Virus record (IMG/VR): IMGVR_UViG_2537561689_000013 | Length of the DNA stretch: 18,965 nucleotides | Direction: 5' to 3' (one strand) | From: a virus | Lineage: Duplodnaviria; Heunggongvirae; Uroviricota; Caudoviricetes | Shown: in pieces, positions 4,556-9,633 of the stretch | Layout: every line of letters starts with the position of its first letter | Numbering within the stretch: the stretch's first letter is position 1 | The notes under the pieces: generated by a model | What the model was told of the DNA's origin: nothing | The model's database searches: none | Seen by the model: the letters and a program-made list of their open reading frames with translations, nothing else | Translations under genes and position numbers: made by a program

Positions 4556-5251
4556 TTAATCACTTAAGGAATGAAGTGAGGCTCGTTGTGCAGAGGTTAA
4601 GCTAAGGAGGATTTTTTCTCGATACTCAGGTGCAAAGGAAAAGAAAACATCAGGAAAAATTCTTATGATAGTTGATATCATAGTCTTAACCACCTTATCA
4701 ATCACCTTCGAAATATTATCTATTTTAACCAAGTCTATTTCGGGAAAAACATTTAAAGCTTTTATGTGAGCCATTTCTTTTACAGTAGCTGTATGTACGT
4801 GACTGCATAACGAAGAGTATTCAGCTTTTAAAGTTTCATGTAGTAGAGGATTTTTTTTGAAGACAGGATGTTCCCCAGTTTGTTCAATTACCTTAAACAA
4901 TGATTTTTCTTCAAGTATTGAAGGATCTAGTAAGCAACCGATTGATTTTAAAGAATTTTCAATATAACTTCGCATCATTAGATTTGCTGGTTTGTATGCA
5001 CCATTTATAACCATAAACATAGCTGTACCAAGGTCAGATGAAGCTTCTTGCAATCGCTCCAATGAGTTGGCGTCTATTTTCTCCTTGGAGAAATGATACA
5101 AACAGTAAACAAGGCACATAAAAGAATAATATCTCTTATGTATCATGCTTATTTTCCCTCTTGAGTTAATATTCTCGAAAACATTTTTTAATTTATATTC
5201 AGAGAAATAAGTAACTAACTCAGTGAAATCGCTGTTTACTTCTCTCGACAT
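4556..5251 (-). CDS. Hypothetical protein (231 aa), third gene of the AT-rich operon; no recognisable family
   Basis: Long ORF in a region of about 30% GC; start lies 2 nt after the stop of the upstream gene. No catalytic motif recognised by eye. Confidence 0.65.
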   Translation of the reverse strand: MSREVNSDFTELVTYFSEYKLKNVFENINSRGKISMIHKRYYSFMCLVYCLYHFSKEKIDANSLERLQEASSDLGTAMFMVINGAYKPANLMMRSYIENSLKSIGCLLDPSILEEKSLFKVIEQTGEHPVFKKNPLLHETLKAEYSSLCSHVHTATVKEMAHIKALNVFPEIDLVKIDNISKVIDKVVKTMISTIIRIFPDVFFSFAPEYREKILLSLTSAQRASLHSLSD

Positions 5252-5253
5252 TG

Positions 5254-5760
5254 TTAGTCCTTATTGAATATATCTTTTATAACTTCATTCCAGTCATATA
5301 TCTCATTTTGAGCGCTAGAAAGGTTCTTCCTCTCTTTTATTCTACTCAAAACTAGAGGGTTATTTGACATTGAATTGATAATATTATAAGCCTTACCTAA
5401 ATCGGATGAGTTTTTCTCGTGAACGTCACACACGATTATGCCGATCATTTCCTCTCTAGATCTTTTTTCAGGCCTGCTGATTTCGATACCTAACATGCGT
5501 GCAAAATCATCTATATCTTTATTTTTTTGGAAGAGATCTTTGTCTAATAAAATCCTCGGAAGATACCCAACAAGGAAACCTTTAATATCATTTTTTTTGG
5601 ACTTTGAATTTCTTTCGTTAACTTCTAAATTATCAGTATAACTATCTTGAAGTAATTCAATAAAGTTGATTCTTGATAATTTTTTTGAAATAAAGGAAAA
5701 CTCCTCTAAAAAGTTTAACAGTTGCTTAATTTCTTTTGAGTTATTTTTTTTGTCAGTCAT
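5254..5760 (-). CDS. Hypothetical protein (168 aa), Lys/Asn-rich, second gene of the AT-rich operon; no recognisable family
   Basis: ORF whose ATG overlaps the stop of the upstream ParA-like gene (ATGA overlap at 5757-5760), implying translational coupling. Confidence 0.65.
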   Translation of the reverse strand: MTDKKNNSKEIKQLLNFLEEFSFISKKLSRINFIELLQDSYTDNLEVNERNSKSKKNDIKGFLVGYLPRILLDKDLFQKNKDIDDFARMLGIEISRPEKRSREEMIGIIVCDVHEKNSSDLGKAYNIINSMSNNPLVLSRIKERKNLSSAQNEIYDWNEVIKDIFNKD

Positions 5761-6587
5761 AAGTCACCTACTCTAGAGAGAAGTTCGTCAGTAATTTTAG
5801 ACAGCGAAAACTTCATATCCTCATCCGTTAAATTGTTAATAAATAAGCCTCTTGTTTGATTTCTTGCCAACTCAGTACGTTTGCTCAAATATGATTTAAA
5901 GATCTTATTACGCCAACGTTTTTGATTATTGAAGTAACGAAGACTTTCCTCATATAAATTACTATTACCTTCAACCATATTAAAAACTATGCCCGCACAT
6001 TCAATCTTAAGATCGAAATTTTCTCTCTTCTCATTTATAATGCTATCTAATAGATCGATACCAGTGATCGAAAGAGGATCGGGTTTGGCTGGAATGAGGT
6101 AATAATCAGATGCAATTAATGCGCTGGACATCCAAACTGATGGGGTTGGTGGGGTATCAATTATGACATAATCATAGTCATTTTCATGGATTTTAAGAAA
6201 GCGTCTAAGCTTGTTTTCTATCCCTTCTCCTGGTTTCATTTCAATTTTATATAGCCCAAGGCTTCCGGGAACAATGTGAAAATTATCATTTAATTGAATT
6301 GGTGTTATATCGGCTAATTCTTTAGGTGTGTTAACTAAAGGACCAGTCATTGTAGATAGTCGAATTTTTGAACTATAAAAAATATCACATATGCTATCGC
6401 CTCCGCTTTTCATATGTGCAACATATTTGCTTGTATCCATTACACATTGCGTTGCGTTAAATTGTGGGTCGATATCTATTAATAATATTTTTTGCCCAAG
6501 TTTATCTGAAAGATGATTAGCAATATTGGTAGCCAATGTTGACTTACCAACGCCACCTTTCATATTGATTAAGCTAATAACTTTCAA
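5757..6587 (-). CDS. ParA/MinD-superfamily P-loop ATPase (deviant Walker A), first gene of the AT-rich operon
   Basis: N-terminal MKVISLINMKGGVGKSTLATNIA (KGGxGKST deviant Walker A), DIDPQ motif, Walker B-like YVIIDTPP. No N-terminal HTH extension, so it resembles small type Ib ParA/MinD-like ATPases. Confidence 0.8.
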   Translation of the reverse strand: MKVISLINMKGGVGKSTLATNIANHLSDKLGQKILLIDIDPQFNATQCVMDTSKYVAHMKSGGDSICDIFYSSKIRLSTMTGPLVNTPKELADITPIQLNDNFHIVPGSLGLYKIEMKPGEGIENKLRRFLKIHENDYDYVIIDTPPTPSVWMSSALIASDYYLIPAKPDPLSITGIDLLDSIINEKRENFDLKIECAGIVFNMVEGNSNLYEESLRYFNNQKRWRNKIFKSYLSKRTELARNQTRGLFINNLTDEDMKFSLSKITDELLSRVGDL

Positions 6588-6827
6588 TCTTCTTGCTCCT
6601 GTTTTGATTAACGCTAAGCTTTTTCATCAGCATTGAAATTTAACATGTGTTTTACAAACTTATGTCTTATCACTACCTTATCATTTTTTACATACACCAT
6701 AAATATTTTTAACTAAAAATTTTTGGTTTTCAACCTGAAATCTTTATCTTTAAAAACAAAACATTACAATATTTTTAGTAAGATACCTTACCTAATGTAA
6801 TGTGAATGGCTCAATTTTGATTAACAC
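6588..6827 (-). promoter_or_regulatory. Very AT-rich leader, presumed promoter region of the ParA-like operon
   Basis: About 240 bp of >75% AT immediately upstream of the operon start. No specific -35/-10 assignment made. Confidence 0.3.
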
Positions 6828-7094
6828 TTAAGCTATGTTAATAATGGTTTTGTAAGTGTGATGAGGGTTCCATATGAAGAAGTGATTTCCCGAACAATAC
6901 AACATGAATATCATCCTCGTAGTCGGTGTTTCTTCACATGAACTCTGTCGCAAATACGCTATATGAAACGTGGCAAGATGAATGTACCTGAGGTTATCAA
7001 TCTTAAACCGCTTGAGAGTACGCCCTGATCCTGCCCGTTGATAAACTAACTGCATTGTTTGTAATGCTTCATCGGTGGTGAGAACAAGTTTCAT
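6828..7094 (-). CDS. Hypothetical 88-aa ORF, possibly a remnant of a disrupted gene at the island/prophage junction
   Basis: ORF track only. The N-terminal half looks protein-like, but the C-terminal part runs into AT-rich sequence; no family recognised. Confidence 0.25.
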   Translation of the reverse strand: MKLVLTTDEALQTMQLVYQRAGSGRTLKRFKIDNLRYIHLATFHIAYLRQSSCEETPTTRMIFMLYCSGNHFFIWNPHHTYKTIINIA

Positions 7095-7299
7095 ACTTCC
7101 GCTTCTCGCTCAAAGCGGACTAGAAGGTTAGCTTGCGTCGGACTTGGCGTATTTAAAGAAGTACTGGTGGTGACTGGTTGTTGTGTTCCATTTCTACAGA
7201 ACAAAATCACAGAAACTATACCCAATAGTTGTATCTCATCAATGATGAGACAGCCTCATATTTATCAGGACTGGTGTACGTCCAATACAGGAGGTTGTC

Positions 7300-7389
7300 G
7301 TGCTGGTTCTCAAATGTGCGCTGGCTATTGCAGCTGTAATGGCAATTTATTGTCTTGCTGTTGTTCTTATGGATCGCCTTTCTGATTGA
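7300..7389 (+). CDS. Small hydrophobic peptide (29 aa, VLVLKCALAIAAVMAIYCLAVVLMDRLSD), candidate small membrane protein or type I toxin-like peptide
   Basis: GTG start preceded by a consensus AGGAGG SD with 5-nt spacing; single predicted TM helix. Too short to appear in the ORF track. Confidence 0.3.
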   Translation: MLVLKCALAIAAVMAIYCLAVVLMDRLSD

Positions 7390-7600
7390 TTTTATATTGG
7401 CGAGGTAACGGGAGTTAAGTAGAATGGCTGCGGGTGCTTGAGGCTATCTGTCTCAGGCATGAACACCAAAGGCAGATAGAGAAAAGCCCCAGTTAACATT
7501 ACGCGTCCTGCAAGACGCTTAACATTAATCTGAGGCTCAATCTATGAACGGCAAATCTAGGTTAGCCTCTTACGTGCCGAAAGGCAAGGAGAAGCAGGCT

Positions 7601-7756
7601 ATGAAGCAGCAAAAGGCGATGTTAATCGCCCTGATCGTCATCTGTTTAACCGTCATAGTGACGGCACTGGTAACGAGGAAAGACCTCTGCGAGGTACGAA
7701 TCCGAACCGGCCAGACGGAGGTCGCTGTCTTCACAGCTTACGAACCTGAGGAGTAA
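7601..7756 (+). CDS. hokD: Hok/Gef-family type I toxin (HokD/RelF-like)
   Basis: MKQQKAMLIALIVICLTVIVTALVTRKDLCEVRIRTGQTEVAVFTAYEPEE matches the Hok family and, from memory, is closest to HokD. The ORF-track ORF 7544..7756 is the same frame with an upstream extension. Confidence 0.8.
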   Translation: MKQQKAMLIALIVICLTVIVTALVTRKDLCEVRIRTGQTEVAVFTAYEPEE

Positions 7757-7823
7757 GAGACCAGGCGGGGGAGAATCCCTCGCCACCTCTGATGTGTCAG
7801 GCATCCTCAACGCACCCGCACTT

Positions 7824-7850
7824 AACCCGCTTCGGCGGGTTTTGTTTTTT
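7824..7850 (+). terminator. Rho-independent terminator at the 3' end of the hok transcript
   Basis: AACCCGC-ttcg-GCGGGTT followed by TTGTTTTTT. Confidence 0.6.
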
Positions 7851-8202: not shown

Positions 8203-9249
8203 GTGCGGGTATTACTTCGACCTGTTCTGGTACCGGAACTCGGGCTGGTGATCGTTAAGCCGGGCCGGGAATCCATGCCGGTATTCCACAATACCCGGGT
8301 ACTGGTGGAGCCGGAACCGAAAAGCATGCGTAATCTGCCGTCCGGGGTCGTTCCTGCCGTTCGCCAGCCGCTAGTGGAAGACAAAACATTGCTGCCGTTT
8401 TTCAGTAACGCACGGGTGATTCGTGCTGCTGGTGGTGCTGGTGCATTGTCTGACTGGCTGTTGCGCCATATTAAATCCTGCCAGTGGCCTCATGGTGATT
8501 ACCATCACAGCGAAACCGTCATACATCGTTACGGTGCTGGCGCGATGGTGTTGTGCTGGCACTGTGACAACCAGTTGCGTGACCAGTCCTCCGAATCACT
8601 TGAGCAACTTGCTCACCAAAACCTGTCAGCATGGATGATTGATGTCATGCGCCATGCAATGAATGGCACACAGGAGCGGGAATTATCGCTGGCTGAATTA
8701 TCCTGGTGGGCTGTCTGCAATCAGGTGGCGGACGCACTACCGGAGGTAGTATTACGTCGTTCTCTGGGGTTACGTGCGGAAAAAATTCGCTCGGTGTACC
8801 GCGAAAGCGACATCGTACCGGGAGAGCAGACCGCCACCAGCATACTGAAGCAGCGCACAAAAAATCTTGCGCCGCTGCCTCACGCCCACCAGCAAAATCC
8901 ACCACAGGAAAAGACGGTGGTCAGCATTGCTGTTGATCCGGAGTCTCCGGAATCTTTCATGAAGCGACCTAAACGTCGCCGTTGGGTAAATGAGAAATAT
9001 ACGCGCTGGGTAAAGACACAGCCGTGTGCGTGTTGTGATAAGCCAGCCGACGATCCCCATCACCTGATTGGTCATGGTCAGGGCGGAATAGGGACAAAAT
9101 CCCACGATATTTTCACGCTACCGCTGTGTCGGGAGCATCACAACGAGCTTCATGCGGATCCGCTGGCGTTCGAAGAAAAGCATGGTTCCCAGATTGATTT
9201 AATTTTTCGTTTTCTTGATCGCGCCTTTGCAACCGGCGTGCTCGGGTAA
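8203..9249 (+). CDS. Lambdoid nin-region protein, YdfU/DUF968-like, with C-terminal Cys/His-rich HNH-like motif
   Basis: GTG start with GGAGG SD 4 nt upstream. C-terminus carries CACCDK...PHHLIGHGQGG...CREHHNELH. Length (348 aa) and position before rusA/Q fit the YdfU/DUF968 proteins as I recall them. Confidence 0.7.
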   Translation: MRVLLRPVLVPELGLVIVKPGRESMPVFHNTRVLVEPEPKSMRNLPSGVVPAVRQPLVEDKTLLPFFSNARVIRAAGGAGALSDWLLRHIKSCQWPHGDYHHSETVIHRYGAGAMVLCWHCDNQLRDQSSESLEQLAHQNLSAWMIDVMRHAMNGTQERELSLAELSWWAVCNQVADALPEVVLRRSLGLRAEKIRSVYRESDIVPGEQTATSILKQRTKNLAPLPHAHQQNPPQEKTVVSIAVDPESPESFMKRPKRRRWVNEKYTRWVKTQPCACCDKPADDPHHLIGHGQGGIGTKSHDIFTLPLCREHHNELHADPLAFEEKHGSQIDLIFRFLDRAFATGVLG

Positions 9250-9261
9250 AAGAGGTTACTG

Positions 9262-9633
9262 ATGCGTATAGAGTTTGTTTTGCCTTACCCGCCGACGGTG
9301 AACACCTACTGGCGTCGTCGTGGCAGCACATATTTTGTATCAAAAGCCGGTGAGCGTTATCGCCGGGATGTGGCACTTATTGTCCGCCAGCAGCGGCTGA
9401 AATTAAACCTGTCCGGAAGGCTGGCAATAAAAATTACTGCAGAGCCGCCGGATAAGCGCCGTCGGGACCTGGACAATATCCTGAAAGCACCGCTGGATGC
9501 ACTGACGCATGCGGGGCTTCTCATAGACGACGAGCAGTTTGATGAAATCAATATTGTGCGCGGTAAGCTCGTTCCTGGTGGTCGGCTGGGCGTGAAGATT
9601 TGCGAAATTAGAGGTGATAGTAATGGGGCGTGA
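9262..9633 (+). CDS. rusA: Crossover junction endodeoxyribonuclease RusA (Holliday junction resolvase)
   Basis: 123-aa protein with LPYPPTVNTYWRRRG and RRRDLDNILKAPLDAL motifs typical of RusA; AGAGG SD upstream. Confidence 0.85.
   Translation: MRIEFVLPYPPTVNTYWRRRGSTYFVSKAGERYRRDVALIVRQQRLKLNLSGRLAIKITAEPPDKRRRDLDNILKAPLDALTHAGLLIDDEQFDEINIVRGKLVPGGRLGVKICEIRGDSNGA

Follow-up and report, generated by a model that had tools for sequence, protein, structure and literature searches.

Comparative analysis strongly supports the view that a small open reading frame (ORF) next to a prophage hok locus is a genuine protein-coding gene, because its frame, start codon and Shine-Dalgarno sequence (SD) are kept among homologues, an excess of synonymous changes falls in that same frame and deep lineages have a dN/dS of 0.18-0.3. 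The ORF lies in a stretch of 18,965 nucleotides from IMG/VR virus record IMGVR_UViG_2537561689_000013 (Caudoviricetes), which was analysed as a whole and which we call the window. We think it reasonably probable, and the best explanation of the data, that this is a real gene for a 29-residue inner-membrane peptide, carried with hok in a prophage moron cassette, and that the peptide has a non-toxin role on a membrane partner. What is new here is a widespread, conserved small-protein gene that has neither a family nor a name and that databases call "hypothetical". Small membrane proteins are systematically under-annotated and several of them have proved to be potent regulators or toxins; the gene is also a concrete case for better annotation of genes of fewer than 30 codons. 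Its fixed place between a variable defence/cargo slot and hok/sok makes it a candidate for a part in prophage-host or phage-phage conflict.

The ORF and the adjoining hok locus have the following features.

7289-7294, plus strand: Shine-Dalgarno sequence AGGAGG, followed by the spacer TTGTC (7295-7299) and the GTG start codon (7300-7302)
7300-7389, plus strand: small ORF of 29 sense codons and a stop codon (TGA, 7387-7389), read from the sequence
7397-7425, plus strand: hok promoter, -35 TTGGCG (7397-7402), 17-nt spacer and -10 TAGAAT (7420-7425), conserved in all alleles
7432-7841, plus strand: hokD-type locus (Rfam RF01794 at 110 bits over 7432-7606; RefSeq hokD annotation)
7432-7606, plus strand: hok mRNA leader with the sok target, starting at about 7432
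7544, plus strand: mok ATG, from the ORF list
7602-7756, plus strand: hok, from the ORF list
7824-7841, plus strand: intrinsic terminator of hok, the only good terminator downstream of the small ORF

The product of the small ORF (7300-7389) is fMet-LVLKCALAIAAVMAIYCLAVVLMDRLSD; with the GTG initiator read as fMet, the full product is MLVLKCALAIAAVMAIYCLAVVLMDRLSD. The GRAVY of these 29 aa is 1.81 and the Kyte-Doolittle mean is 2.4-2.7 in 19-residue windows spanning residues 1-25, a profile compatible with one transmembrane (TM) helix and a short charged tail (D, R, D). A preliminary description of this DNA had placed a GTG at 7300 behind an AGGAGG at 5-nt spacing and had read the product as a single TM helix with a short polar tail. 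The coordinates and the sequence are exact, and the hydropathy values fit such a helix.

Three other readings of the ORF were rejected. A longer start (MWEVIV... in some alleles; database calls of 37-51 aa) has no SD and the extensions are not conserved, the conserved start being a GTG or ATG after GGAG. A lipoprotein is discounted since neither Cys has an acceptable lipobox as read from the sequence. A degenerate duplicate of hok is discounted since 7095-7411 has no nucleotide similarity to the rest of the window.

Neither the motif nor the length singles out this ORF. The window contains two instances of the SD-start motif AGGAGG-N4-9-RTG, where 1.06 are expected, and the 4-kb neighbourhood of the small ORF contains 66 ORFs of at least 20 aa. 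Taken alone, the SD-start motif and the ORF length are at chance level; it is the conservation across homologues that raises the small ORF above chance.

We compiled a set of homologues to which a nucleotide pattern scan added 120 IMG/VR loci and five genome contigs, including those of E. albertii and E. ruysiae. Of 74 unique homologous flanks, 70 have an intact small ORF, and it exists as 28 nucleotide haplotypes when the copy on the Shigella virulence plasmid (pINV) is counted. Across divergent alleles the start column is always GTG or ATG with its position unchanged, and all of them retain the GGAG core of the SD (AGGAGG, GGGAGG, AGGAGA or CTGGAG). Frame, start codon and GGAG are retained in every intact homologue, with alleles ranging down to about 78 % nucleotide identity, and the indels keep the frame (a 3-nt deletion in locus L004, a 3-nt insertion in locus L139). 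An alignment of eight diverged copies indicates that the sequence to the left of about 7256 may be unrelated while the ORF region persists. Conservation of the frame in related sequences, which the preliminary description had proposed as a test of its reading, is thus what we found.

The substitution pattern points in the same direction. Substitutions were placed by parsimony on a neighbour-joining tree, using only codons 2-21, which are outside the search pattern. Leaving aside the pINV copy, which was found by tblastn, there are 25 synonymous and 21 non-synonymous changes where neutrality predicts 14.1±3.1 synonymous changes; the observed 25 are matched by 4 of 10,000 permutations (pattern-found set, codons 2-21). 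With pINV included the synonymous changes number 32 against 17.3±3.5 expected, a value that none of 4000 permutations reaches, and the changes fall mostly on third codon positions (29, compared to 19 on first and 10 on second positions). The same permutation test including pINV finds no synonymous excess in the other five frames. A 72-aa Cys-rich plus-strand ORF (7167-7385) and the minus-strand ORFs of phage HannyBb were rejected as alternative frames for this lack of synonymous excess, and coding upstream of the small ORF is ruled out by a 14-nt indel in 7155-7168.

A profile search recovered deeper relatives, namely MLAALKGFVAILAVVAIYCLVVVLMDRLSD (locus L139), MLIIKGVLAIVIVVAIYCLVVTLWERLSD and a clade of 34 aa, MSDDISLAMEGALAVVAVVGVYCLVVFLMDRLGN, that we call clade 2. 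Pairs of deep lineages have a dN/dS of 0.18-0.30 where dS is about 0.5-1.5, a range that for the profile-found relatives (L139, L140) is biased downward by searching with a protein profile. Among close alleles dN/dS is near 0.85, a value derived from very few changes, and the L004 allele has an Arg in mid-helix (VVRVIY). The tightest constraint on the peptide is on (I/V)YCL and on the C-terminal L(M/W)(D/E)R(L/F)S(D). Taken together, these comparisons suggest that purifying selection on the peptide is moderate, not strong. The hok leader is nearly identical between the deep-lineage loci whose peptide genes have diverged, and the peptide gene therefore evolves independently and is not merely frozen with hok.

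To describe the distribution we refer to the alleles of the window type as clade 1. The clade 1 ORF is present in 1896 of 5426 complete E. coli genomes (35 %), with at most three copies in each, and clade 2 (WP_001278454.1) adds 672-1093 genomes, STEC O26 and O103 among them. Counting both clades, between about a third and a half of the E. coli genomes sequenced have the gene. E. albertii and E. ruysiae also have homologues. The peptide appears to form an unnamed family limited to Escherichia and Shigella. The block 7095-7411, whole or partial, occurs in about 2500 E. coli genomes and is unannotated in all sampled records. The window itself matches the chromosome of E. coli strain 120899 (NZ_CP025916.1) at 100 %. 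That chromosome contains three copies of the peptide ORF, one of which (9170-9273) is 100 % identical to window 7286-7389; the three copies indicate several related prophages on one chromosome.

RefSeq annotates no feature at the small ORF in NZ_CP025916.1. PGAP calls WP_000960667.1 in some strains, Prokka calls the small ORF on pWR100, and the GenBank records of REL606 and BL21 list an allele. The statement in the preliminary description that standard annotation would miss the gene is thus correct for NZ_CP025916.1 and the sampled records and does not hold in general. Database entries (GCZ25347.1, ACT39199.1 from REL606, WP_000960667.1, WP_001278454.1 and UniRef A0A0M1UIT1) are labelled hypothetical, uncharacterised or "membrane protein". 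The same description had recognised no known family in the peptide, and our searches agree: Pfam (E<=10) and NCBIfam give no match, the sole PHROG match is insignificant (E=0.74), and BLASTP of the peptide against HokD yields no alignment at E<=100. None of the papers searched contains the peptide sequences or the accessions, and among them a search for hokD together with small proteins returned nothing relevant.

The surroundings of the gene belong to a lambdoid prophage, namely to its early-right (nin) part. Low-GC minus-strand cargo flanks the ORF on the left and consists of a ParA-like AAA_31 ATPase and two proteins without a family; on the right follow the hokD-type locus, which is complete, a hypothetical gene of 92 aa, and DUF968, RusA and Q. 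The ORF sits downstream of replication or DUF977 genes and of a variable slot, and before DUF968/RusA/Q. Elsewhere this slot is occupied by DUF262, DUF5677, ABC-three-component proteins, NUDIX plus HAD, DUF4145 or a P-loop ATPase; the three cargo proteins of the window match no PADLOC system. The conserved block that carries the ORF begins at one further feature.

7099-7123, no strand assigned: hairpin-like left border of the conserved block, GTCCGCTTT-TCGCTC-AAAGCGGAC

The right arm of this hairpin, AAAGCGGAC, is invariant and the left arm is variable. The hairpin marks the junction with the variable slot, a cargo/defence hotspot with a defined right border whose cargo here spans about 4556-7094. 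Between the upstream region of the ParA-like gene and the conserved block we also observed an 88-aa ATG ORF on the minus strand (6828-7094), which has no RefSeq annotation and no Pfam or PADLOC match.

We examined the small gene for two characteristics of a moron. It is variably present between conserved phage genes (35 % of E. coli genomes; absent at the hok locus of 933W). It has no terminator of its own: the hok terminator at 7824-7841 is the only good one downstream, and the ORF and hok therefore look like one cassette.

Alignment and promoter scans revealed the following putative expression signals upstream of the ORF.

7234-7262, plus strand: predicted sigma-70 promoter P_orf, with a conserved -10 CATATT at 7257-7262 and the -35 position at 7234-7239
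7234-7250, no strand assigned: perfect palindrome TCTCATC-AAT-GATGAGA, allele-specific, replacing the -35 hexamer
7242 to 7215, minus strand: promoter-like site TTGATG-16-TATAGT, back to back with P_orf and directed away from the ORF

P_orf is found in 9 of 12 representative alleles as TTGAAT, TTGAAG or TTGAGT, then 17 nt, then CATATT ending at 7262. Its predicted start at about 7269 would give a leader of about 30 nt. Among 128 copies the -35 reads TTGAAT in 89 and TTGAAG in 14 (103 of 128 for the two) and TCTCAT in 11, the last being the sequence of the window's allele. No site resembling TTGAAT-17-CATATT was found in clade 2 loci. The TCTCAT hexamer belongs to the palindrome, which is present in 11 of 128 copies; most other copies read TTGAATCAATGATGAGA at this site, from which the palindrome differs by a three-base change that abolishes the -35 hexamer of P_orf. 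This change looks like a multi-base mutation templated by a quasi-palindrome. Since the palindrome overwrites the -35, the own promoter of the window's allele is probably weak, and expression of this allele may rely mainly on upstream transcription.

The minus-strand site at 7242-7215 is conserved in 6 of 12 representatives, which comprise the A-type alleles (those sharing block 7098-7228 with the window) and pINV. Transcription from this site would run leftwards through the conserved non-coding block 7098-7208, and the Shigella data show no transcription start site (TSS) for it.

In 135 Shigella/EIEC pINV records we found a copy of window 7200-7484, 77.7 % identical and about 290 bp upstream of icsP. 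The ORF in this copy is intact, reading MLVLKGTLAIAAVMTIYCLIVVLMERFSD, and has an ATG, an AGGAGG and the promoter hexamers; hok is cut off about 50 nt into its leader. H-NS silences icsP. With the plasmid region H-NS-silenced, we regard a missing TSS there as weak negative evidence. The only TSS map covering a homologue is the dRNA-seq table of Shigella M90T, and on pWR100 it lists no start at the equivalent of P_orf, the nearest starts on the same strand being 90709 and 90726 (icsP) and 91318 (PMC7132871, supplement 4). On pWR100 (S. flexneri M90T, locus L134 2902-3187) the upstream region of icsP is made of a prophage remnant followed by the AT-rich icsP promoter. Within the remnant are the peptide gene and the hok promoter, together with roughly 50 nt from the beginning of the hok leader, and the icsP starts 90709 and 90726 fall just downstream of it (PMC7132871).

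We hypothesize that the gene is the upstream member of a hok moron cassette in the nin region, at the right edge of a variable cargo/defence slot. Most alleles would be transcribed from their own sigma-70 promoter, TTGAAT-17-CATATT, and all alleles by read-through of phage early transcription, and the transcript probably extends into hok, no terminator standing before it. The consensus SD, the GTG and the short unstructured leader would allow translation at a constitutive, moderate level, in keeping with a product that is not lethal. A single TM helix would anchor the peptide, likely in the inner membrane, and the peptide may act through helix-helix contact with a larger membrane protein or through self-association; it would not be an RNA-repressed killer. 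This membrane-partner mode of action is proposed by analogy with other small membrane proteins.

Alternatively, the peptide may be a new type I or orphan membrane toxin that depolarises or permeabilises the inner membrane and is checked by an RNA or another antitoxin that our scans do not see. We consider this unlikely. Size and hydrophobicity (29 aa, GRAVY 1.81) are like those of short type I toxins, and the gene is a neighbour of hok/sok, itself a bona fide type I system. On the minus strand, the promoter-like sequence TTAACT-18-TAAAAT (7418 to 7389) would drive antisense transcription through the ORF in the window's allele, and the site at 7242 to 7215 is divergent and back to back with P_orf; such a divergent layout is seen in tisB/istR, zorO/orzO and dinQ/agrB. 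However, the antisense -10 TAAAAT is present in only 3 of 12 representative alleles, the others having TGAAAT, which lacks the key A at position 2. The divergent transcript pairs with the ORF mRNA no better than shuffled sequences do, 82 % of shuffles folding at least as well. The leader of about 30 nt exposes its consensus SD, whereas known type I toxin mRNAs have leaders that are long and folded, and the 135 pINV records keep the ORF with ATG and AGGAGG and have no obvious partner.

RNA folding is equally uneventful. The plus-strand fold of 7268-7431 shows no excess structure over shuffles (z=0.04), the minus-strand fold (z=-1.45) is driven by the allele-specific palindrome and is not beyond shuffles, and 7100-7431 has no Rfam match; a structured non-coding RNA was rejected on these grounds. 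An antisense or divergent antitoxin RNA was rejected on the negative results of the promoter conservation scan and the duplex-versus-shuffle test, a conclusion that covers conventional promoters, the scans being crude. Among the type I characteristics that can be tested here, the small hydrophobic peptide is present, and the antisense RNA and the long SD-hiding leader, two of the three, are absent. The type I toxin option of the preliminary description thus finds no support, given the lack of a conserved antisense promoter and of a complementary divergent RNA and the unstructured 5' UTR of about 30 nt; the search for an antisense sRNA promoter on the opposite strand, which it had recommended, turned up a sole candidate that is intact in 3 of 12 alleles. 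These sequence features lead us to rank a benign small membrane protein above a toxin, because a consensus SD on a short open leader without a detectable repressor RNA is the opposite of what known type I toxin genes have.

Another explanation is that the peptide is a partner of Hok, being made from a 5'-extended co-transcript and modulating Hok at the membrane, or that transcription or translation of the ORF tunes the hok promoter or mRNA. The preliminary description had placed the ORF directly upstream of hok, and indeed in clade 1 a gap of 7 nt separates its stop codon from the hok -35. All homologues examined have the ORF in the same orientation immediately upstream of the hok promoter, a synteny that is invariant in every clade even at dS of about 1. 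There is no terminator between the ORF and hok, and the ORF transcript therefore probably reads through into hok.

The evidence on the other side leads us to consider such a partnership quite improbable. Hok works without the ORF: the hokW locus of 933W has no such small ORF, and in five loci (L024/L055, L072/L111 and L138) the cargo junction lies inside the ORF. In these five, cargo exchange has removed the N-terminal two thirds of the ORF, leaving its last 8-10 codons and an intact hok promoter, and hok has been kept; the gene is therefore dispensable. Conversely, pINV retains the ORF with hok gone. Nearly all loci examined encode the same HokD (WP_000813254.1) but not the same peptide, with no sign of co-variation. 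The spacing is not fixed either, as 34 extra nucleotides are inserted in clade 2 after the peptide stop codon and before the hok -35, and gene order in lambdoid phages may be conserved without a functional reason. In this same interval of clade 2 loci (L143, 3143-3164) we observed an insertion that is a perfect palindrome of 22 nt, CGATATGGGAATTCCCATATCG; with no T-run on either flank, it is no obvious terminator.

A bolder version, to which we give only a slim chance, would give the hok/sok cassettes of prophages a dedicated third member: the peptide would gate, buffer or potentiate Hok, or serve as a second effector on the same trigger. If true, the hok loci of the nin region would be two-peptide membrane weapons under protein-plus-RNA control, with abortive infection as one example of their use, and what Shigella keeps on pINV ahead of icsP would be a domesticated remnant.

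That there is no gene at all, the frame being open by chance in DNA that hitch-hikes with the hok promoter module or extends it in cis, is very improbable: a 29-codon open frame with a single SD-start motif is within chance for the window, the region is the border of a recombination module, the pWR100 TSS map shows no start at the predicted promoter and most RefSeq genomes leave the ORF unannotated, but the synonymous excess is confined to the ORF frame, the indels keep that frame, GTG and ATG are exchanged with start position and SD retained, and the peptide is kept in deep lineages where synonymous sites are saturated and the hok leader is nearly identical.

The favored reading of a benign membrane peptide can be set against known systems. 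Hok/Gef proteins (PF01848) resemble the peptide in being small, in being encoded by prophages or plasmids and in having a charged segment after a single N-terminal TM helix, and here they share the same cassette and orientation. However, the peptide has no sequence similarity to them, is about 20 residues shorter and lacks the periplasmic C-terminal domain of Hok, and at the small ORF a mok-like overlapping leader frame, a Sok-like antisense RNA and a long folded mRNA are all missing. IbsC, ShoB, LdrD, TisB, DinQ and ZorO resemble the peptide in their range of 19-35 aa, their extreme hydrophobicity and their predicted single TM helix, and the tisB/istR, zorO/orzO and dinQ/agrB loci resemble the small ORF in having a divergent promoter-like site upstream. 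In contrast to those six, with which the peptide has no homology, the small ORF has a short leader with an exposed SD instead of a long structured 5' UTR, and neither a conserved antisense promoter nor a complementary divergent RNA.

AcrZ, MgrB, MgtS, PmrR, SgrT, KdpF and CydX likewise have fewer than 50 aa and a single TM helix, and annotation routinely overlooks them. Where their mode of action is known they bind a larger membrane protein, and we propose the same mode for the peptide. There is no sequence relationship, and those regulators belong to the core genome and have known partners and regulators whereas the peptide gene is a prophage accessory gene. Membrane proteins encoded by morons (HK97 gp15 in superinfection exclusion, Cor, SieB) are also accessory genes between conserved phage modules, with their own promoter and an inner-membrane location, both of which are predictions in the case of the peptide. 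The small ORF also adjoins a variable slot with defence-like cargo. Compared to HK97 gp15, Cor and SieB the peptide is much smaller, and its gene has no terminator of its own and only shares that of hok. The peptide is most like the single-helix small membrane proteins and the prophage morons and is not a member of Hok/Gef.

Finally, some of these prophage loci contain a second, unrelated family of small hydrophobic ORFs, M[TNS]WPEAF...VY.ICRWG, of 25-27 aa. It is absent from the window. One member is at L143 2911-2988, where it is preceded by AGGAGG, and others are in L005, L016, L139, L140 and L142 (933W), with alleles that differ conservatively. In clade 2 loci and in C-type loci (the L005-like group of alleles) the family directly precedes the peptide gene; in 933W it lies near hokW.
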